From IMG/VR virus record IMGVR_UViG_2671180254_000007: a DNA stretch of 8,155 nucleotides; one strand, given 5' to 3'. This document shows, piece by piece, positions 1-8,155 of this stretch. The DNA comes from a virus (lineage: Duplodnaviria > Heunggongvirae > Uroviricota > Caudoviricetes). The notes under the pieces are model-generated. The model was given only the letters and a program-made list of their open reading frames with translations, ran no database searches and was not told the DNA's origin. How positions within the stretch are numbered: the stretch's first letter is position 1; the number at the start of each line of letters is the position of its first letter. Position numbers and translations under genes: made by a program.

Positions 1-61
1 CATCAGATGGCTGCTTAAAAAAAGAACAAATGGTAGTGTCCGCTATTGCCAGTACACCTCA
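1..61. repeat. Left copy of a perfect 61-bp terminal inverted repeat (partner at 8094..8154)
   Basis: Seen in sequence: bases 1..61 equal the reverse complement of 8094..8154; identity ends at 62 versus 8093. Confidence 0.9.
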
Positions 62-188
62 GGGTATAAGGGGTTATGGCCACCGGACTACCAAACGGCT
101 GCCAGCCCTCTTTCAGTTTATGTGTCAGCTTTTCCGCAAGATCTGACGGCGGCGCCGCCCTGACAACATCATAGTGTTTAAATGCCAT
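15..188 (-). CDS. DUF1737-like small phage protein with a replaced C-terminus (start could also be 203)
   Basis: ORF-track protein from the internal Met (MAFKHYDVVRAAPPSDLAEKLTHKLKEGWQPFGSPVAI...) fits the DUF1737 pattern I recall (GWxPxG core); GGAAAG lies 5 nt upstream of the ATG at 188. The last 15 codons (LRCTGNSGHYHLFFF) are encoded by the inverted repeat, so the native C-terminus looks replaced. Confidence 0.5.
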   Translation of the reverse strand: MAFKHYDVVRAAPPSDLAEKLTHKLKEGWQPFGSPVAITPYTLRCTGNSGHYHLFFF

Positions 189-381
189 GGTTCTTTCCAC
201 CATCTGAAAAATAATTCTTTAAAATACCTGACATGTAATACAGAAAAAACACAAAACCATACCTTAAATAAAAACCTGATTATCAAGCAGATATGCATGG
301 ATAAACTACAAGACGAGATATAAACCACCCTGCATTTAAATAAACAATAAACAACATCAGAAAAATAATTCTGCTCTATGG

Positions 382-408
382 TTTACATTCAAAAATATCA
401 TTTATACT
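382..408 (+). promoter_or_regulatory. Putative sigma70-like promoter upstream of ORF 449..784
   Basis: TTTACA (382-387) and TATACT (403-408) with a 15-nt spacer in AT-rich DNA; spacer is short and AT-rich DNA gives many chance matches. Confidence 0.2.
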
Positions 409-448
409 TTTCAGAACATCACCAGCAAGGCATAAACAAGGAAACTAA

Positions 449-784
449 ATGAAGTGGATTGTGATTGATACAGTTATCCAGCCATCATGCGGAATATCTT
501 TTTCAGTCATATGGAGTAAAATAAAATTAATAATCTGGTATCAATCGGATGCTTTCTTACCTCCTGAAAGTATATTTACACTGACTCACACAGGCATCAT
601 GCTCAATAACAAAGTGCTACCTGTAACCATTTACAACGTAGTACCATTCAATAAAACATTCTGGAATTCAATCAAAAATAGCCAGGAATGCCCTACAAAT
701 ACAGATAACGTATTGAATGAATGCTTTAATAACCGTTGCACTCTGCAAATATGTCCTTATGGACTAAAACAACAAAGTCCATAA
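449..784 (+). CDS. Hypothetical protein, AT-rich cargo (moron-like) ORF, Cys- and aromatic-rich
   Basis: A 111-codon open frame in ~30% GC DNA where stops should be frequent; AGGA 6 nt upstream of the ATG; orientation opposite to the surrounding operon. No family recognised. Confidence 0.35.
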
Positions 785-812
785 GGAGTTTACTCACATC
801 TGACAAAATCAA

Positions 813-1071
813 NNNNNNNNNNNNNNNNNNNNNNNNNNNNNNNNNNNNNNNNNNNNNNNNNNNNNNNNNNNNNNNNNNNNNNNNNNNNNNNNNNNNNNNN
901 NNNNNNNNNNNNNNNNNNNNNNNNNNNNNNNNNNNNNNNNNNNNNNNNNNNNNNNNNNNNNNNNNNNNNNNNNNNNNNNNNNNNNNNNNNNNNNNNNNNN
1001 NNNNNNNNNNNNNNNNNNNNNNNNNNNNNNNNNNNNNNNNNNNNNNNNNNNNNNNNNNNNNNNNNNNNNNN
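813..1071. other. Run of 259 N (masked sequence or assembly gap)
   Basis: Seen in sequence; content unknowable. Confidence 1.
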
Positions 1072-1184
1072 CGCCACCAGCACACCGTCAGCCAGCACTG
1101 ACATTATCCGGCTGCTGCAATGCCATTCACAAAAACAGTAAGCAATCACTTTTTACCGTAACAGGTGATAATCCAGATATGTAT

Positions 1185-1538
1185 CTACCCCAGATGAGTA
1201 ATCCGAAGTTCATCCATACCACAGGTCCTGGCTATTCTGTTGTACTCCTGAACAAGAGCAAATAATTCTGAATTAGCAACCATGAACTCATCGCAAACCC
1301 TCTGTATAGCATCACTATTCAGAATAATAACGTCTCTTCCCGAAAGACGATCAGGAGTACAGAACAAAACTGTCAAACGGCTGAAGGCCTTTGCTCGTGC
1401 TGCATTGACTATATCAATACGCTGCCTAAGGATGAAACACCCCGACGCCTCATCAATATTCACTCTACCCACACCATATGAATGATAAATATTTAATGCT
1501 GAAAAAACCATTAGACCGTATAACAAACACTCAATCAA
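1185..1538 (-). CDS. Hypothetical protein (TTG start in track; first ATG at 1511)
   Basis: 117-aa ORF with ordinary composition in an AT-rich region between the two N blocks; no convincing RBS, no recognised family. Confidence 0.25.
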   Translation of the reverse strand: MIECLLYGLMVFSALNIYHSYGVGRVNIDEASGCFILRQRIDIVNAARAKAFSRLTVLFCTPDRLSGRDVIILNSDAIQRVCDEFMVANSELFALVQEYNRIARTCGMDELRITHLG

Positions 1539-1600
1539 TACTTAACAGAACTTTTATTTTTGACAAACATAAAATATTTTCAACAATATCCTGAGCCAGG

Positions 1601-1850
1601 NNNNNNNNNNNNNNNNNNNNNNNNNNNNNNNNNNNNNNNNNNNNNNNNNNNNNNNNNNNNNNNNNNNNNNNNNNNNNNNNNNNNNNNNNNNNNNNNNNNN
1701 NNNNNNNNNNNNNNNNNNNNNNNNNNNNNNNNNNNNNNNNNNNNNNNNNNNNNNNNNNNNNNNNNNNNNNNNNNNNNNNNNNNNNNNNNNNNNNNNNNNN
1801 NNNNNNNNNNNNNNNNNNNNNNNNNNNNNNNNNNNNNNNNNNNNNNNNNN
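1601..1850. other. Run of 250 N (masked sequence or assembly gap)
   Basis: Seen in sequence. Confidence 1.
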
Positions 1851-1910
1851 ATATAGCACCCTGACTGATACTGTAGTACCTAAGGTTCCAGAAACTGTGA
1901 TGTATCCGGC

Positions 1911-1936
1911 ACAGAAAAGCCCCTCCGGAGAGGGCT
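1911..1936 (-). terminator. Putative intrinsic terminator (minus strand)
   Basis: GC-rich hairpin agcccctc-cgga-gagggct at 1918..1936, followed on the minus strand by TTTTCTGT. Confidence 0.35.
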
Positions 1937-2132
1937 GGAGAGTGGCGCTATGTGCCATTGCATGATGCCGGGTGCCTCCCGGTGAATTCAGTACCAGCAC
2001 CTGAATCCGCGATTATCCCATATACCTACTCGCTGATTGCCCCTCCGCACAGGGGGATTCACCATGCCAGTTTCTTTTAACAAACTCCCCGCAAAACAGA
2101 CAACTGTCAACCGTCTGAATTGTGAGACATTT

Positions 2133-2158
2133 AAAAAAAAGGCCCGCAAAAGCGAGCC
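2133..2158 (-). terminator. Putative intrinsic terminator just downstream of the tRNA cluster (minus strand)
   Basis: Minus strand reads ggctcgc-tttt-gcgggcc followed by eight T (plus-strand A8 at 2133..2140). Confidence 0.5.
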
Positions 2159-2172
2159 AGGGAAAATAAGTG

Positions 2173-2249
2173 TGGCGCGTTGTACTGGATTCGAACCAGT
2201 GACCGATTGCTTAGAAGGCAATTGCTCTGTCCGGCTGAGCTAACAACGC
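2173..2249 (-). tRNA. tRNA-Arg (anticodon UCU)
   Basis: Manual fold of the reverse complement: acceptor gcgttgt/acaacgc, D-stem gctc/gagc, anticodon loop cuUCUaa, T-arm cactg-gttcgaatc-cagtg, discriminator G, encoded CCA. Resembles E. coli argU architecture. Confidence 0.85.
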
Positions 2250-2262
2250 ATGATGCAGATAA

Positions 2263-2339
2263 TGGACCGCCATCGGGGACTTGAACCCCGCGCAGCCAGC
2301 TTCGAAGGCTGGCGCTCTTTCCTGATGAGCTAATGGCGG
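2263..2339 (-). tRNA. tRNA-Arg (anticodon UCG)
   Basis: Manual fold: acceptor ccgccat/atggcgg, anticodon stem ccagc/gctgg with loop cuUCGaa, T-arm cgggg-ttcaagt-ccccg, encoded CCA. The C1:G72 pair is unusual, so the 5' end may be off by a base. Confidence 0.75.
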
Positions 2340-2346
2340 TATGTGA

Positions 2347-2422
2347 TGGTGGCCCTTGCTGGATTTGAACCAGCGACCTGGCGATTATGAGTCGCTCGCT
2401 CTCACCACTGAGCTAAAGGGCC
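2347..2422 (-). tRNA. tRNA-Ile2 (anticodon CAU, lysidine type); Met cannot be excluded from sequence alone
   Basis: Manual fold: acceptor ggccctt/aagggcc, anticodon loop cuCAUaa, T-loop ttcaaat, encoded CCA; strongly resembles E. coli ileX as I recall it. Together with the two Arg tRNAs this matches the ileZ-argN-argO arrangement of Stx-type lambdoid phages. Confidence 0.85.
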
Positions 2423-2462
2423 GGGAGCCGCATAATAACGACGCGTAATTAATTCTTCAATA

Positions 2463-3521
2463 TCATCCGTTCTGGCTGACTAAATCCTGTACTTCCCGAA
2501 CCGTCTGCTCAAAACGTTCAGTCTCCAGCTCAACGCCAATTGCACGACGCCCGAGCGCCAGTGCCGCTTTCACTGTCGAACCCAACCCCATGAAAAAATC
2601 TGCAATCAGGTCACCCGGACGACTGCTAGCGCTGATTATCTGCTGCAGCATTTCTGCCGGTTTTTCGCACGGATGTTTCCCGGGATAGAACTGCACCGGT
2701 TTATGCGTCCACACATCGGTATACGGCACCTGCACCGTCACGCCAAAATACCGCCGCAGATGTTTATATTCACTCAGCAGCTCCGCATACTGCCGGTTCA
2801 GTGAGGTATACGTATCCACCAGCTGGTGGTGGAGCTTTTCCAGTTCACCACGCCGATGCTTCTCTTCTGCCACCCGGGCAAACAGCGCCTGTAATTTCAG
2901 ATAATCGCTTTCATTCGGCAACTGCCACTGACCGGCACTGAACCAGTGCGACACCATGTTTTTCTTTCCTGTGGCATCTGCAATCTGTTTTGCCGTTATC
3001 CCCAGGGCAGCTCGCGCATCACGAAAGTAAGAAATCAGCGGGGCCATCACATGCTGTTTCAGTGCACTGCCCTTCGCCGCATACCCGGCATCTTTCGGAC
3101 GATACGGCCCCTGATAATGTTCCGCGAACAGAATGCGCTCTGTGGCGGGGAAATACGCCCGCAGGCTTTCCTTGTTGCATCCGTTCCAGCGTCCGGACGG
3201 CTTCGCCCAGATAATATGGTTCAGCACACTGAAGCGTTCACGCATCATGATTTCGATATCAGATGCCAGGCGATGACCACAGAACAGGTAAAGACTTCCG
3301 GCAGGTTTCAGCACCCGCCAGAACTGCGCCAGACACTGGTCCAGCCACTTCAGGTAATCATCGTCGCCCTTCCACTGGTTATCCCAGCCCTCAGGCTTCA
3401 CTTTAAAGTACGGCGGGTCCGTGACTATCAGGTCAACAGAATTTTCGGGTAACGACCGGATAAATTCCAGGCAGTCGGCGTTGATTAACTCACAACTGGA
3501 TATTTTTACAGTATTAAGCAT
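2463..3521 (-). CDS. Orphan DNA methyltransferase, beta-class (N6-adenine likely; PF01555-like)
   Basis: 352-aa ORF with DPPY catalytic motif near the N-terminus (VTDPPYF) and the AdoMet motif FxGxG near the C-terminus (DFFMGLGST); this motif order is beta-class. A central ~90-aa insert could be the target-recognition domain. No restriction endonuclease ORF is adjacent. Confidence 0.9.
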   Translation of the reverse strand: MLNTVKISSCELINADCLEFIRSLPENSVDLIVTDPPYFKVKPEGWDNQWKGDDDYLKWLDQCLAQFWRVLKPAGSLYLFCGHRLASDIEIMMRERFSVLNHIIWAKPSGRWNGCNKESLRAYFPATERILFAEHYQGPYRPKDAGYAAKGSALKQHVMAPLISYFRDARAALGITAKQIADATGKKNMVSHWFSAGQWQLPNESDYLKLQALFARVAEEKHRRGELEKLHHQLVDTYTSLNRQYAELLSEYKHLRRYFGVTVQVPYTDVWTHKPVQFYPGKHPCEKPAEMLQQIISASSRPGDLIADFFMGLGSTVKAALALGRRAIGVELETERFEQTVREVQDLVSQNG

Positions 3522-3553
3522 GGATCATTAAGCCTGTCTCTGATAGGCTCATT

Positions 3554-3572
3554 CTGCTTTTGCGCAAAGCAG
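3554..3572. promoter_or_regulatory. Near-perfect palindrome ctgcttttgcgcaaagcag upstream of the methyltransferase start
   Basis: Seen in sequence, ~35-50 bp upstream of the ATG at 3521; operator-like dyad symmetry. Confidence 0.3.
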
Positions 3573-3613
3573 TGGGCCTGAGGTTTGCTTGTGAACCCAA
3601 CGCATGAGCAGAT

Positions 3614-3644
3614 GGCTGGTGGGTGCCCCTAACACCCACCAGCC
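3614..3644. promoter_or_regulatory. Perfect 12-bp inverted repeat (ggctggtgggtg / cacccaccagcc) with 7-nt spacer
   Basis: Seen in sequence; no flanking T-tract on either strand, so not a typical intrinsic terminator; candidate protein-binding site or RNA structure in the methyltransferase leader. Confidence 0.35.
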
Positions 3645-3655
3645 GCCCATTTACC

Positions 3656-3685
3656 ACAAATAAAAAAGCCTTCACTGCGGAAGGC
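3656..3685 (-). terminator. Intrinsic terminator overlapping the stop codon of ORF 3672..3869
   Basis: Minus strand: gccttc-cgcagt-gaaggc followed by TTTTTTATTT. Confidence 0.6.
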
Positions 3686-3869
3686 GTCTGTAACAACCGA
3701 ACTGATAGTCTGCCAGACCCGCCATAACCAGCTGGGTCAGTATTAACTGGCAGCGTTCGCGTGAAAGGTAAGTATTCTGCGCTATCTCCCCGACTGTCGC
3801 CGGTTCGGTAACGCTTAATTCATTAAACACCACTCTGGCGGTTTCTGTCATATCCTGCTGTTTTAGCAT
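3672..3869 (-). CDS. Small (65 aa) hypothetical protein, possible helix-turn-helix DNA-binding protein
   Basis: ATG at 3869 with AGGA 6 nt upstream; the segment TVGEIAQNTYLSRERCQLILTQL looks like an HTH recognition region (inference only). Confidence 0.5.
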   Translation of the reverse strand: MLKQQDMTETARVVFNELSVTEPATVGEIAQNTYLSRERCQLILTQLVMAGLADYQFGCYRRLPQ

Positions 3870-3987
3870 GTCTTTTCCTTTTCCGGTTAACGTGACACAC
3901 CAATAACTCTTGTCGAAAAAGCCAGCAAGCTGAAAGACAGGTATTCACCGCCACCAGCGCGTTTACTGTACTGACGCGATTTCAGTC

Positions 3988-4011
3988 ATAAAAAACCCGC
4001 TCGGCGGCGGG
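3988..4011 (-). terminator. tR'-like intrinsic terminator downstream of Q
   Basis: Minus strand: cccgc-cgccga-gcggg followed by TTTTTTAT. Confidence 0.55.
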
Positions 4012-4060
4012 TTGTAGAAACTCTTCTAACGTCAGGCATAAAACGCCCATCGTTATGACG

Positions 4061-4088
4061 AATTTACCACAGATTCCGGAAAAATCAA
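4061..4088 (-). promoter_or_regulatory. pR'-like late promoter (candidate Q engagement/qut region)
   Basis: Minus strand TTGATT (4088..4083), 16-nt spacer, TAAATT (4066..4061), immediately downstream of the Q stop and ~55 nt upstream of the tR'-like terminator; position matches lambda pR'/tR' logic. Confidence 0.4.
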
Positions 4089-4093
4089 CCTTG

Positions 4094-4915
4094 TTACCTA
4101 GTTACCTTTTTTAACTGCCGCTCAGCCCATGCTTCTTCAATATCAAACCGGGTCACCAGCGCATCATAAAATTTCTTAACTGTTTTTTCCCATGACGCGC
4201 GTGTTATCTGGTTTGTCACCTCGCATATAGCATTAAATGCCTCCGTTGATGGTAGTCTTTCATAGCCACGACCACCACAACGCTGGCAGTCTCTGATAAC
4301 AGGCATACCACGTTTTACCGACTCTTCACGATGAATGGCGACACCACGCCCACGGCAATCCTTACAGGCGGTGGAAACCTCACCCTTTCCGCCACACTCC
4401 GGACAGGCAACTTTTACCACCTCCCTGACTTTTTTCCATTCTTCCCAGTAAGACGGATACACACCTTTCGTACACTTTGCCCATACCGGCGGCTTACCAT
4501 CCGGATACTGGATCTTGTTTGTAAAAACCTCGCTTTCAATAAATTTTTTTCCGTGACAGCAGGGGCACTGTTTTTTGCTCGCCGCGCTACGGGCATAATC
4601 TTCAAACGCATACGAAGCCATAATACGCATCACTGCCGGTTTTATTTCTGCCGGGAGTTTTCTTAACGCCGCCACGCGATCACACCGACTGAGTGCATAT
4701 TCTGTCAGCAATTCTGTTGCCCGCTCTCTGTCATTCATACTAATGCCCATTTTCCCAAGGAACGCAGAAACCCCCATCTCAGCCCGATTCTGTGTCATGC
4801 CCTGCGCGGCCATCACATCAGTGATACTCAGCGCATCTTTCGACGTTGAGGCCGATGCATCAGTCAGGCCGGGGGATTTTGGGGAGTAGTATTTCGGTAA
4901 ATCTTCCAGTTTCAT
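4094..4915 (-). CDS. Late-gene antitermination protein Q (lambda Q family, with insertion)
   Basis: 273-aa protein aligns by eye with lambda Q: N-terminal M(K/R)LE..PK(Y/F)(Y/H)SPKSP, TDVMAA.GM, DY.RSAA, CxxC zinc motifs, C-terminal TVK..YDALV...VTR. Start ATG overlaps the rusA stop (ATGA). Confidence 0.9.
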   Translation of the reverse strand: MKLEDLPKYYSPKSPGLTDASASTSKDALSITDVMAAQGMTQNRAEMGVSAFLGKMGISMNDRERATELLTEYALSRCDRVAALRKLPAEIKPAVMRIMASYAFEDYARSAASKKQCPCCHGKKFIESEVFTNKIQYPDGKPPVWAKCTKGVYPSYWEEWKKVREVVKVACPECGGKGEVSTACKDCRGRGVAIHREESVKRGMPVIRDCQRCGGRGYERLPSTEAFNAICEVTNQITRASWEKTVKKFYDALVTRFDIEEAWAERQLKKVTR

Positions 4916-5292
4916 TTTTTGACCTGCCCTTCAAGCATTATGGGATAAATCTTCACCCCCAGACGTCCACCAGATACTGGCTGAGCACGAACGATATTGA
5001 TTTCATCAAACTGCTCATCGTCCATTAGCAACCCCGCATGCGTCAGCGCATCCAGCGGCGCTTTCAGAATATTGTCCAGGTCACGGCGGCGCTTATCCGG
5101 TGGTTCTGCAATAATTTTTATTGCCAACCTTCCGGACAGGCTTAATTTCAGCCGCTGCTGGCGAACAATAAGCGCCACTGCCCGGCGATAACGCTCCCCG
5201 GCTTTTGATACAAAATATGTGCTGCCACGACGACGCCAGTAAGTGTTCACCGTCGGCGGGTAAGGTAAAACAAATTCTATGCGCTCGGTCAT
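4912..5292 (-). CDS. rusA: Holliday-junction resolvase RusA
   Basis: 126-aa protein matches E. coli RusA as I recall it (LPxPPxxN, PDxRRRDLDN, DALTxAG, GGRL). Confidence 0.92.
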   Translation of the reverse strand: MTERIEFVLPYPPTVNTYWRRRGSTYFVSKAGERYRRAVALIVRQQRLKLSLSGRLAIKIIAEPPDKRRRDLDNILKAPLDALTHAGLLMDDEQFDEINIVRAQPVSGGRLGVKIYPIMLEGQVKK

Positions 5293-6351
5293 TTATGCTT
5301 TCCACTTCAGAACACCCGAATTTCTCGCGTGCATTAAAAAACGAATCAGCAACAACAGCTGACTGCCGTGTTTCTCTTCAAAATCTTTTACTCCGGCATG
5401 TAGTTCGTTACGGCATTTACGGCATAACGGAATAACAAACAAATCATCAGCCTTTGTTCCCATCCCTCCCAGTCCATGACCAATGATGTGATGCGGATCA
5501 TCTGCCTGATTGCCACACGTCATGCATTTCTGCGTTTTTACCCAGCGCGTGTATACAGGCATCTCTTCCCGTTGTGATTTCTGGCGCTGGAGATACTGAG
5601 CCGGTGACTCCGGATCAACGGCAATGCTGACCACCGTCTTTTCCTGTGGTGGGTTCTGTTGCTGGTGGACGTGAGGCAGTAACGCAATATTTTTTGTGCG
5701 CTGCTTCAGTATGCTGGTGGCTGTCTGCTCTCCCGGTATGATGTCGCTTTCACTGTACACAGAGCGAATTTTTTCCGCACGCAACCCCAGCGAACGACGT
5801 AATACCGCTTCCGGTAGCGCGTCCGCCACCTGATTGCGGACCGCCCACCAGGATAATTCAGCCAGAGATAATTCACGCTCCTGCGTACCGCTTATTGCGT
5901 GACCGATGACGTCAATCATCCATGCTGACAGGTTTTGATGAGCAAGTTGCTCGAGTGATTCGGATGTCTGGTCACGCAGCTGGTTGTCGCAGTGCCAGCA
6001 CAACACCATTGCGCCGGTACCATAACGGTGAATGACGGTTTCGCTGTGATGATAATCGCCGTGTGGCCACTGGCAGGATTTAATATGGCGCAACAGCCAG
6101 TCAGACAATGCACCAGCACCACCAGCAGCACGAATCACCCGTGCGTTACTGAAAAACGGCAGCAATGTTTTGTCTTCCACCAGCGGCTGGCGAGCGGCAG
6201 GAACGACCCCGGACGGCAGATTACGCATGCTTTTTGGTTCCGGCTCCACCAGTATTCTGCCGTTATGGAATGCTGACATTGATTCACGGCCTGGCTTAAC
6301 GATAACCAGACCGAGTTCCGGTACCAGAACAGGTCGAAGTAATACCCGCAC
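5293..6351 (-). CDS. DUF968-family prophage protein (YdfU-like) with C-terminal Cys/His HNH-like motif
   Basis: 352-aa ORF; GTG start at 6351 preceded by GGAGG with a 4-nt spacer (alternative ATG at 6279); C-terminal CMTCG...HHIIGH...CRKCRNELH; lies directly upstream of rusA and Q as in Qin-type prophages. Confidence 0.8.
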   Translation of the reverse strand: MRVLLRPVLVPELGLVIVKPGRESMSAFHNGRILVEPEPKSMRNLPSGVVPAARQPLVEDKTLLPFFSNARVIRAAGGAGALSDWLLRHIKSCQWPHGDYHHSETVIHRYGTGAMVLCWHCDNQLRDQTSESLEQLAHQNLSAWMIDVIGHAISGTQERELSLAELSWWAVRNQVADALPEAVLRRSLGLRAEKIRSVYSESDIIPGEQTATSILKQRTKNIALLPHVHQQQNPPQEKTVVSIAVDPESPAQYLQRQKSQREEMPVYTRWVKTQKCMTCGNQADDPHHIIGHGLGGMGTKADDLFVIPLCRKCRNELHAGVKDFEEKHGSQLLLLIRFLMHARNSGVLKWKA

Positions 6352-6426
6352 ATTACCTCCAGATCCGTTGCTGGAATGTGCGGGACGGACGCGTTGGCCG
6401 TTCGGAGTAAGGGAGCCTGACGGAGA

Positions 6427-6711
6427 TTATCCAGTGACGGTAGTCGAGGCTAAGGGCTTTTTTAACCTCGCATCCGCGCCTGCGGTAACACTGAATGAGC
6501 CATTCGGCCTGTTCTTCAGTGCATGGGGGATGCTGGTACCAATCAGATTTAAATGCGTGAGAGCGCCGCCCGTGCCTGCTGGCAAAGACGGCTGAATTAT
6601 CAGAATTGTGTAGTCTGGAAGGCAGTGGCTGACAATAGCGCCATTCTCAACGCGCACAGTATAGAGGCCATCTTCACTAAAAATTTCACGTAATTCTTCG
6701 ATTTTCATCAA
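6427..6711 (-). CDS. Small nin-region protein (possible Rem-like), with a possible -1 frame continuation to 6353
   Basis: 94-aa ORF with AAGGA ~9 nt upstream of the ATG; position matches rem in E. coli K-12 Qin (hokD-rem-ydfU). The -1 frame stays open ~98 codons and ends at the DUF968 start. Confidence 0.5.
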   Translation of the reverse strand: MMKIEELREIFSEDGLYTVRVENGAIVSHCLPDYTILIIQPSLPAGTGGALTHLNLIGTSIPHALKNRPNGSFSVTAGADARLKKPLASTTVTG

Positions 6712-6827
6712 CAGAATCCTTCCAGATAAATAGCACTCCCCTGTTCGGGGTCCATCCCTCTTCTCCCTGCGCGCTACTTAAGTATTTTTGATTCTATTCC
6801 GGCACCATCTAAAACTTCAAACGCGTT

Positions 6828-6858
6828 GAAAATAAAAACAAAAACCCGCCGAAGCGGG
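6828..6858 (-). terminator. Intrinsic terminator downstream of hok (minus strand)
   Basis: Minus strand: cccgcttcggcggg followed by TTTTTGTTTTTATTTT. Confidence 0.6.
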
Positions 6859-6928
6859 TTAAGTGTGGGTGCATTGAGGATGCCTGACCCATCAGAGGTG
6901 GCGAGGGATTTCTCCCCCGCCTGGTCTC

Positions 6929-7084
6929 TTACTCCTCAGGTTCGTAAGCTGTGAAGACAGCGACCTCCGTCTGGCCGGTTCGAATTCGTACCTCGCAGAG
7001 GTCTTTCCTCGTTACCAGTGCCGTCACTATGACGGTTAAACAGATGACGATCAGGGCGATTAACATCGCCTTTTGCTGCTTCAT
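6929..7084 (-). CDS. hokD: Hok/Gef-family type I toxin (HokD/RelF-like), 51 aa
   Basis: Internal Met of ORF 6929..7141 gives MKQQKAMLIALIVICLTVIVTALVTRKDLCEVRIRTGQTEVAVFTAYEPEE, matching E. coli HokD as I recall it; GGAG 9 nt upstream of this ATG. The track ORF adds 19 in-frame upstream codons of uncertain meaning. Confidence 0.9.
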   Translation of the reverse strand: MKQQKAMLIALIVICLTVIVTALVTRKDLCEVRIRTGQTEVAVFTAYEPEE

Positions 7085-7375
7085 AGCCTGCTTCTCCTTG
7101 CCTTTCGGCACGTAAGAGGCTAACCTAGATTTGCCGTTCATAGATTGAGCCTCAGATTAATGTTAAGCGTCTTGCCGGACGCGTAATGTTAACTGGGGCT
7201 TTTCTCTATCTGCCTTTTGGTGTTCATGCCTGAGACAGATAGCCTCAAGCACCCGCTGCAATTCTACTTAACTCTCCTTTTCCCGCAAACCGTTTTTATC
7301 CCCAGCGGCAAATCGAATACACCACCAGCGCCACCGCCATCGCAATTCCTACCGTTGTTAATGCTTCAGGCCAGG

Positions 7376-7720
7376 TCATCGTAAAATATCCTCCACGCTT
7401 ATCAGTCCGTTCCGCTCCAGATAACTCATCGCCTTATCCGGTAATTTGCAGTCTGGCTTCGCTTTCCTCAGTTGCCAGGTTAACTGCTTTACCAGCATGG
7501 TTAACTCATCGACCAGACGCTGATATCCCACTGGTTTGTATTCATGCAATTTACCGGCTGGCTCTGCTGCCAGCGATACCAGTGCGATTTCCAGAACAGC
7601 AATATCCATCTTATATGTGCGGATGATGTCATGGTCGATTGTGCCCGGTATGCACAGTCTCTGTGCTTCAATAGTCTCCTCTGCGTGAGCTATTAACTGC
7701 TCTCTGGTAAAAGTCGTCAT
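7376..7720 (-). CDS. Hypothetical protein (114 aa), paralogous to the upstream 55-aa ORF
   Basis: ATG overlaps the stop of the upstream ORF (ATGA). N-terminus MTTFTREQL resembles MTTITKERI of the neighbour, and both share an IAL.SL.AEP segment. No family recognised. Confidence 0.6.
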
Positions 7721-7884
7721 GCCGTAGCCCCTTCTTGATATTTTTCAAACCAGAACACAACCGGCTCTGCTTCCAGCGATGCCAGCGCAATCCGTGCCAG
7801 TTCCATTTGTTCACCACGGGTAAGCCCGTTTTCAAGCGGGTTTTTAATGAACAATTCAATACGTTCTTTGGTAATAGTGGTCAT
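7717..7884 (-). CDS. Hypothetical protein (55 aa), absent from the ORF track (<60 aa)
   Basis: Hand translation: [55 protein letters not shown]; GGAG 6 nt upstream of the ATG at 7884; stop overlaps the next start. Confidence 0.55.
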
Positions 7885-7894
7885 GTGTTACTCC

Positions 7895-8125
7895 TTAACC
7901 CGCAGTGCTTTCAACTGATGAGGGGAACAAAATCTTTTCATCAAACCCTGCATTCATATCATGAACAGCAACACACCAATCCATCGACGAACGATTATCA
8001 AGAGCCTCCATGATTTCATCCATGCGGCGTAGGTCATACAGGTAAATGCTTTTATCGCCAATGGTGTAAAAGCCAATTTTTTTCGGTGATGGATGAGGTG
8101 TACTGGCAATAGCGGACACTACCAT
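7895..8125 (-). CDS. Hypothetical protein, probably the C-terminal part of a gene that starts beyond the window
   Basis: 76-aa ORF with no RBS before its ATG; the frame remains open upstream to the window edge (inside the inverted repeat); its stop immediately precedes the RBS of the 55-aa ORF. Confidence 0.4.
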   Translation of the reverse strand: MVVSAIASTPHPSPKKIGFYTIGDKSIYLYDLRRMDEIMEALDNRSSMDWCVAVHDMNAGFDEKILFPSSVESTAG

Positions 8126-8154
8126 TTGTTCTTTTTTTAAGCAGCCATCTGATG
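8094..8154. repeat. Right copy of the perfect 61-bp terminal inverted repeat
   Basis: Reverse complement of 1..61. Confidence 0.9.
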
Positions 8155-8155
8155 A

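Follow-up and report, generated by a model that had tools for sequence, protein, structure and literature searches.

A tRNA trio of the ileZ-argN-argO type beside an empty stx site in a defective Shigella sonnei prophage fragment

The tRNA operon on the late-gene strand

The stretch of DNA analysed, IMG/VR virus record IMGVR_UViG_2671180254_000007 (Caudoviricetes, 8,155 nt), is referred to in full as the window, and all coordinates are relative to its first letter. On its minus strand the window carries, in this order, the antiterminator gene Q, the terminator tR', a small open reading frame (ORF) termed orf65, a DNA methyltransferase gene, three tRNA genes, a strong terminator and an STnc100 small RNA (sRNA) gene. 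The three tRNA genes are the subject of this analysis. They had been likened in an earlier note on the sequence to the ileZ-argN-argO block that lies upstream of stxAB in Shiga toxin (Stx)-converting phages. The operon and its immediate surroundings comprise the following features.

2347-2422, minus strand: tRNA with anticodon CAU, putatively of the Ile2 (lysidine) type, ileZ (ARAGORN; Rfam RF00005, 72.5 bits)
2263-2339, minus strand: tRNA-Arg(UCG), argN (ARAGORN; RF00005, 58.0 bits)
2173-2249, minus strand: tRNA-Arg(UCU), argO (ARAGORN; RF00005, 70.1 bits)
2432-2460, minus strand: sigma-70-like promoter TTGAAG-17-TATTAT, 9/12 consensus matches, with 9 nt between it and the 5' end of ileZ
2131-2158, minus strand: intrinsic terminator directly 3' of argO, with a 7-bp G+C stem, a UUUU loop and U8
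2129-2132: empty stx site, from blastn boundaries and alignment, with the junction at 2130-2131
1907-2096, minus strand: STnc100-family sRNA gene (EcOnc27/sRNA103 homologue; Rfam RF02076)

Exactly three tRNA genes were called in the window by ARAGORN, all on the minus strand, and each call was matched by Rfam RF00005 at the scores listed, against a gathering score of 29; the three tandem genes of the earlier note were thus recovered by both methods. Genes with PF03589 and PF01555 domains lie upstream on the same strand, so the position downstream of a Q and methyltransferase segment also held. The anticodons follow one another as CAU, UCG and UCU on the late-gene strand, which is the order of the ileZ-argN-argO block, and the trio lies downstream of Q and tR', with the moron site and lysis genes beyond it, the native locus continuing with an esterase and a holin.

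The genes were compared with those of the Stx2a-converting phage Stx2a_1447 (AP012536.1; comparison locus L002). The CAU gene was identical at 76/76 bases to the gene annotated there as ileZ and argO was identical at 77/77, while argN matched at 73/77 bases with all 4 differences in the D and T loops. Together with 93.9% identity across 1.9 kb of flank, this bears out the likeness drawn previously. The CAU tRNA was labelled Met by ARAGORN from the anticodon alone. A gene identical to it is tRNA-Ile in the RefSeq annotation of four comparison loci (L001, L003, L004 and L005), and its acceptor stem, as read off the sequence, carries C4-G69 and C5-G68. It also shares 68/76 bases with what we take to be the sequence of K-12 ileX. 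Annotation, acceptor stem and the presumed ileX identity give indirect support to an AUA-reading tRNA of the Ile2 type.

The trio is read here, with a probability of roughly 0.9, as an Stx2-phage tRNA operon, the ileZ-argN-argO block of the late-region backbone, carried in a toxin-free, defective, IS600-cut prophage of S. sonnei beside ompW.

The TTGAAG-17-TATTAT sequence is probably the dedicated promoter of this operon. Its -10 element is invariant across the window, the Stx2a phage and a second S. sonnei prophage remnant (locus A), and the sequence farther upstream varies. A transcription start site has been mapped between tR' and stx2AB (PMC7547250), which was counted in favour of the assignment. 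At the other end, the hairpin at 2158-2141 on the minus strand (GGCUCGC-UUUU-GCGGGCC followed by U8) had a folding energy of -13.8 kcal/mol and a z-score of -4.2, and 0 of 200 shuffled sequences were as stable. It is the strongest intrinsic terminator after the tRNAs and a third hairpin that was overlooked in the earlier note. The same terminator sits between argO and stx2A in Stx2a_1447.

Prevalence was determined with the 266-nt trio region as the query. The region matched 3061 of 5426 finished E. coli genomes, and in 2578 of these the match covered 80% or more of its length; a single E. coli genome had as many as 13 trio places. It likewise matched 289 phage records, most of which are named as Stx2-converting. 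Given this prevalence, toxin-free copies are the rule in E. coli and Shigella chromosomes. The same counts bear on the possibility that the tRNAs are host genes marking an attB integration site and not phage cargo. Phages often integrate at tRNA genes, and a 2026 preprint read tRNA hits near Pas/STnc100 sRNAs as integration hot spots. The trio nevertheless lies inside the late operon, between the Q/methyltransferase segment and the lysis genes and not at a prophage end, and both the phage records and the multiple copies per genome contradict a host origin, which is accordingly regarded as extremely improbable.

The empty stx site and the STnc100 sRNA gene

The best phage matches to the window included many Stx2a-converting phages. 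By blastn, window 2132-4013 aligned with L002 4424-6299 at 93.9% identity, a stretch that covers tR', orf65, the methylase gene, ileZ, argN, argO and the terminator. Window 2039-2129 aligned at 82% with L002 3001-3091, which on the phage side is the sequence immediately 3' of stx2B. Between the two alignments the phage holds a 1332-nt interval, L002 3092-4423, with no counterpart in the window, made up of a 50 nt stx2A leader, stx2A, stx2B and a 41 nt trailer. In the base-level alignment the window and the phage agree through GGGCCUUUUUU, split, and come together again at the TCACAATTCAG box that precedes the conserved TTGACAGTTG. Because both flanks align while the cassette has no counterpart, the window holds an exact empty stx site, and the stx2AB cassette is the only large difference between the window flank and Stx2a_1447.

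No stx-like ORF was found in the visible sequence of the window, and none was found in the two native S. sonnei loci, both read without gaps. The absence of toxin genes remarked on in the earlier note was therefore upheld. A Stx-converting phage carries stxA/stxB between the tRNAs or PR' and the lysis genes and forms a complete, inducible prophage; neither was present here. The proposal that a different payload had taken the place of stx was not borne out. STnc100, an IraM-like ORF and a DUF1737/nanS-p esterase also lie downstream of stx2B in the Stx2a phage (a DUF1737-SASA esterase in Stx2a_1447), and since these elements belong to the same backbone, no alternative payload replaces stx. The boundaries of the stx2AB cassette are thereby mapped to the base, from the U-run of the argO terminator to the TCACAATTCAG box ahead of STnc100, and with the boundaries so defined the locus constitutes a natural "empty site" with which Stx phages entering S. 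sonnei might recombine.

The earlier note had pointed to a gcccctccg motif in two terminator-like hairpins downstream of the tRNAs. The motif does recur, as direct repeat D13 (1919-1934 and 2039-2054, 88% identical), and both hairpins fold locally. Both fall inside a single match to Rfam RF02076 (1907-2096, minus strand) of 123.6 bits against a gathering score of 47, with E=1.6e-27 and covering the full model from 1 to 206. In the alignment to the Rfam model the copy at 2039 (2039-2055) forms the first of the internal stem-loops (CCCCCUGUGCGGAGGGG); it runs on into CAAUCAG, without a U-run, and so lacks the form of a terminator. The copy at 1919 is the terminal STnc100 hairpin (1918-1936), followed by UUUUCUGU, and is terminator-like, more weakly so than 2141-2158 with its U8. 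Only one of the two hairpins therefore kept the description it had been given, and both were re-assigned to a known sRNA.

A reading of the 1919 and 2039 hairpins as tandem terminators that end the tRNA operon is very unlikely. In its favour, each is a stem-loop rich in G+C and lies downstream of the tRNAs, and that at 1918-1936 has a U-rich tail. One full-length covariance-model match nonetheless spans the pair, the hairpin at 2039 has no U-run, and a far better terminator (2141-2158) already stands directly after argO. In Stx2 phages, moreover, stx2AB sits between the argO terminator and these hairpins.

The STnc100 gene starts 35 nt past the empty stx site, on the strand of the late transcript. 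An STnc100 homologue is called just after stx2B in Stx2a_1447 (L002 2843-3058, 153.8 bits), beginning about 75 nt after stx2B. STnc100 overlaps the experimentally detected Hfq-binding sRNA EcOnc27 of O157 Sakai, sRNA103 of EDL933, immediately downstream of stx2B, and an expressed, Hfq-bound RNA has been shown for EcOnc27/sRNA103 in O157 only (PMC12711010). The sRNA has also been placed 75 nt after the stx2 operon (PMC12370729), and a 'moron insertion site' with convergent sRNA genes was described 3' of PR' (Tree et al., 2014; PMC4104026). In the 2026 preprint STnc100 was related to PasD.

The window copy of STnc100 has a 1-nt deletion in its terminator stem, one C fewer than every other copy. 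When the whole gene was folded as a single sequence the result was not distinctive against shuffles (z=-1.13), and the minimum free energy structure departed from the Rfam consensus by pairing the 5' CCCCC with the 3' GGGG across about 130 nt in place of the two local hairpins. No covariation was found in the two hairpin stems across six STnc100 copies. With this z-score and no covariation, folding adds nothing beyond the Rfam score. As a smaller possibility, the near-identical CCCC/GGGG stems of the two hairpins may pair at long range as a conformational switch. AsxR and AgvB (RF02703/RF02702) gave no match in window 1-2500 even at E<=5, and none at the gathering threshold in the comparison loci; the site expected for them, left of 1851, is an N-run in the window.

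Native S. sonnei loci and the structure of the window

The remaining features of the window are as follows.

1-61: terminal sequence of IS600 (IS3 family), 100% match to annotated IS600
449-784, plus strand: IraM-family anti-adapter paralogue, 111 aa, locus A (NCBIfam NF007393, 162 bits, cutoff 121)
813-1071: N-run of 259 N, separating the locus A segments
1185-1538, minus strand: 117-aa ORF, 92 or 108 aa long in the annotation of relatives, matching no Pfam or NCBIfam family
1601-1850: N-run between locus A (left) and locus B (right) sequence, contiguity unproven
2463-3521, minus strand: N6/N4 DNA methyltransferase, 352 aa (PF01555, 144 bits)
3672-3869, minus strand: orf65, 65 aa, conserved beside the methyltransferase in Stx2a phages (from the ORF list)
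3994-4013, minus strand: tR'-like intrinsic terminator downstream of Q (-11.2 kcal/mol), at the Stx2a blast boundary of 4013
4061-4088, minus strand: candidate PR' late promoter TTGATT-16-TAAATT, read off the sequence just after the Q stop codon
4094-4915, minus strand: antiterminator Q, 273 aa, with two Antiterm repeats and a CxxC zinc region (PF03589, 179 bits)
8094-8155: terminal sequence of IS600, other arm

The ends of the window form a perfect 61-nt inverted repeat (repeat I1, 1-61 with 8094-8154), both IS600 copies presenting the same end to the segment. A DUF1737/nanS-p-type gene at 15-203 and, at the other end, an early-region ORF at 7895-8125 are cut short by them. Native loci were reached by exact-protein look-up with these two cut ORFs. 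Finished S. sonnei chromosomes with the loci include CP000038.1 (Ss046), HE616528.1 (53G) and CP019689.1 (75/02), for which the accession-to-strain assignments were confirmed (PMC5447701).

Window 1851-8155 was 100.000% identical over 6305 nt to one of the loci, termed locus B (L018, L020, L022 and L023). Locus B adjoins ompW and reads in the order IS600, early-region ORFs, hok/sok, DUF968, RusA, Q, orf65, methylase, tRNA trio and STnc100. Past the position corresponding to 1851, another IS600 follows after 118 nt in most S. sonnei genomes, and CP032523.1 (L019) is uninterrupted. The complete stretch between argO and the next gene was read in L019 and comprises the terminator and then a first STnc100 copy, which is the copy of the window. 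The next gene encodes a 617-aa DUF1737-SASA-DUF6645 esterase of the nanS-p type and is followed by a holin gene, with no stx. The right part of the window is an IS600-bounded, defective lambdoid prophage fragment and not an intact phage. The carrier had previously been taken to be a phage, a view that does not hold for this fragment. Positions 1-1600 derive from another locus.

A composite transposon was considered for the IS600-flanked segment and rejected: the same prophage continues in order outside both IS600 copies, and L019 lacks the downstream copy, so the insertions were independent.

Several further observations were made in and around locus B. The interval between argO and the esterase gene in L019 also holds a degenerate third STnc100-family member (16508-16681, 30 bits, below threshold) and a second full STnc100 copy (16747-17000, 161 bits). 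Beyond the latter the opposite strand carries a convergent terminator, where an anti-sRNA of the AsxR/AgvB type would be expected, but Rfam gave no match to those families. A hok/sok type I toxin-antitoxin system lies in the window, with hok at 6929-7141 on the minus strand (PF01848, 81.6 bits) and sok/mok RNA at 7079-7254 on the minus strand (RF01794, 112.4 bits). CP032523.1 has 250 extra nt at window position 6620/6621 (L019 11506-11755), which restore a Rem-family ORF; the deletion at 6620/6621 is carried by the window and the other S. sonnei genomes.

Window 1-812 and 1072-1600 were 100% identical to locus A, which reads RusA, Q (284 aa), ileZ', argO', block, DUF3927, STnc100, IraM, DUF1737' and IS600. 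In CP022457.1 the two loci are about 0.73 Mb apart (L009 at 3.35-3.37 Mb and L022 at 4.09-4.11 Mb). In locus A, 35 nt separate position 1600 from argO'. The block at 1460-1600 was found just left of 1851-1990 in none of the best 60 of 2498 E. coli records; in those 60 the block was flanked by the STnc100 copy on its opposite side, and the span was 837-900 nt. A pattern bridging 1601-1850 gave 0 matches in viral contigs and 0 in metagenome contigs, the IS600/DUF1737 junction gave 0 matches in genome contigs, and exact-protein look-ups returned both native loci and no contig with the order of the window. The join across 1601-1850 may reflect estimated gaps in a scaffold, arbitrary masking or a rearrangement specific to the strain. 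Since the window joins two loci across N-runs, the IraM-like ORF, the 117-aa ORF and the DUF3927 start (at 1149) are not countable as cargo of the tRNA operon, and nothing left of 1851 should be read as such.

A length of 306 nt, and never 259, was measured for the interval of the first N-run, both in every copy from S. sonnei and in each of the 29 full-length E. coli hits that were sampled, so the N-runs are not faithful in length. In its native form the interval at 813-1071 contains the 3' part of the DUF3927 ORF and a second STnc100 copy, and the N-run almost certainly hides that copy (132 bits in L015), judging from the native sequences. The lengths bear on the proposal that toxin genes are hidden in the N-runs: with 259 N standing where finished genomes hold 306 nt, N-run size alone cannot exclude stx. 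The stx site itself is visible and empty all the same, and nothing but sRNA-type elements, small ORFs, IraM and IS600 occupies those intervals in the two native S. sonnei loci. Hidden toxin genes are thus highly improbable.

The IraM-like ORF gave no Pfam match at E<=0.01. An intact, unannotated IraM-like ORF of 107 aa was observed in Stx2a_1447 between STnc100 and the nanS-p esterase gene (L002 2512-2835, plus strand), in a region 77% identical in DNA to window 434-774. The 117-aa ORF is 99-100% conserved in S. sonnei and many E. coli prophages and natively lies between the tRNAs and DUF3927.

Upstream of the tRNAs, a 'DNA methylase' is annotated at the position of the methyltransferase gene in Stx2a phages, and orf65 gave no family above threshold in Pfam or NCBIfam. 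In S. sonnei locus A and E. coli 2D the U-run of tR' abuts the -35 of the tRNA promoter directly (L015 8200-8260 and L004 4190-4240). By comparison with these loci, orf65 and the methylase gene (about 2462-3990) are a 1.5-kb insertion between tR' and the tRNA promoter, and since this pair is itself an insertion, the region can be described as a stack of cassettes comprising methylase, tRNAs, stx and sRNAs. The candidate PR' and the tR' hairpin would yield a short terminated leader RNA of about 65 nt.

Codon use, possible roles and known systems

Codon use in thirteen window ORFs (1867 codons) was compared with that in seven flanking S. sonnei chromosomal genes (1387 codons). Frequencies per 1000 codons were as follows.

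ATA: window 16.6, chromosomal 2.2 (p=3e-5)
AGA: window 7.5, chromosomal 2.2 (p=0.05)
AGG: window 7.0, chromosomal 0 (p=1e-3)
CGG: window 11.8, chromosomal 4.3 (p=0.03)
CGA: window 3.2, chromosomal 3.6 (not enriched)

The enrichment predicted in the earlier note was seen for ATA and AGA, and for AGG and CGG, but the prediction failed for CGA. For comparison, stx2A contains 15 ATA and 6 AGA in 319 codons. The counts lend support to a tRNA supply role for most of the cognate codons.

Under such a role, the tRNAs would be transcribed constitutively from their own promoter (2460-2432) in the lysogen and, after induction, additionally by Q-antiterminated read-through from PR'. The precursor would be processed by host RNase P and 3' nucleases, and host TilS would convert C34 of the CAU tRNA into lysidine, allowing it to read AUA. 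The trio would thereby increase the decoders for AUA, AGA/AGG and CGA/CGG, codons which are rare in the host and which, CGA apart, the prophage genes use more often; in stx2A there is also strong enrichment of AUA and AGA. In a defective prophage such as this one, the tRNAs could play a role today only through their own promoter.

Several points weigh against the assignment of the trio as a functional Stx2-phage operon. The prophage is defective, which makes a late-gene function of the tRNAs largely moot here. The cognate codon of the UCG anticodon, CGA, is the one that is not enriched, and the host sample of 1387 codons is small. The candidate PR' is a weak consensus match (8/12) that falls under the promoter-scan threshold. 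Lastly, many E. coli prophages and S. sonnei locus A keep only ileZ and argO, argN having decayed, and selection on the full trio is for this reason weak.

In three of the comparison loci the position of argN was observed to be degenerate, with only ileZ and argO called (L015 8256-8508, L004 3946-4193 and L005 4638-4893).

Two other accounts of the present state of the tRNAs were weighed. According to the first, they are non-functional relics of a dead, IS600-cut prophage that have merely not degraded so far. The prophage is indeed bounded and interrupted by IS600, argN has the lower score (58 bits) with 4 positions off the phage copy, and decay of this gene is already seen in the sister locus A and in E. 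coli prophages of the ST131 type. All three tRNAs nevertheless keep complete cloverleaves above thresholds, ileZ and argO are base-for-base the same as the copies in inducible Stx2a phages, and both the promoter ahead of them and the terminator behind them are conserved and intact. S. sonnei is clonal, and 100% identity among its strains is on its own no proof of selection. This account is considered unlikely, though it deserves some weight. According to the second, which is if anything slightly less probable, the trio has been domesticated in the dead prophage with its own promoter and terminator and would be kept for AUA/AGA/AGG decoding of A+T-rich acquired genes (virulence plasmid, islands) instead of phage late genes. 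An ileZ-argN-argO operon of the Stx2-phage backbone in a toxin-free prophage remains the preferred reading.

The locus is real but ordinary. Every element in it has been described before, and the locus itself has been present in published S. sonnei genomes since 2005. Already described are the block, its presence in stx-negative lambdoid prophages, the moron site after PR' and STnc100/EcOnc27. The block is said to have been first described in phage 933W, by Plunkett and co-workers in 1999.

Compared with known systems, the window stands close to the Stx2 phages as represented by Stx2a_1447, with which it shares the three anticodons in the same order, the upstream methyltransferase, orf65 and tR', and the argO terminator. 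It differs in having a Q gene and PR' region of another type, homology ending at tR' (4013), and in being a defective, IS600-bounded element without stx2AB. The predicted leader RNA is comparable in position to StxS of Stx1/Stx2a phages, which is reported at 258 nt and is thus far longer than about 65 nt. The STnc100 gene resembles EcOnc27 in lying on the strand of the late transcript, at the same place relative to the stx site, and in having both conserved hairpins with CCCC...GGGG stems; the window copy is a shorter variant, with about 16 nt gone centrally relative to the Stx2a copy, and has no stx2B upstream of it.

The placing of tRNAs just after Q, with matching codon bias, is a known theme in lambdoid phages (PMC3636060). 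In SfI, Sf6, ST64T and P21 a tRNA-Asn/Thr after Q has the same genome position and the same proposed codon-supply role, whereas the tRNA species are others and have no sequence relationship to the trio of the window (PMC3636060). Close relatives are also the Stx-negative lambdoid prophages of the PPompW type (E. coli AREA_499, 131 and 2D; S. sonnei Ss046, 53G and 75/02), which share Q, in some cases the methyltransferase, the tRNAs, STnc100, the esterase/DUF1737 gene and the holin. The PPompW phage records match at about 90%, and the E. coli relatives differ in Q type, in the presence of the methyltransferase and argN, and in the number and order of STnc100 copies, whereas the S. sonnei locus itself shows no difference from window 1851-8155.

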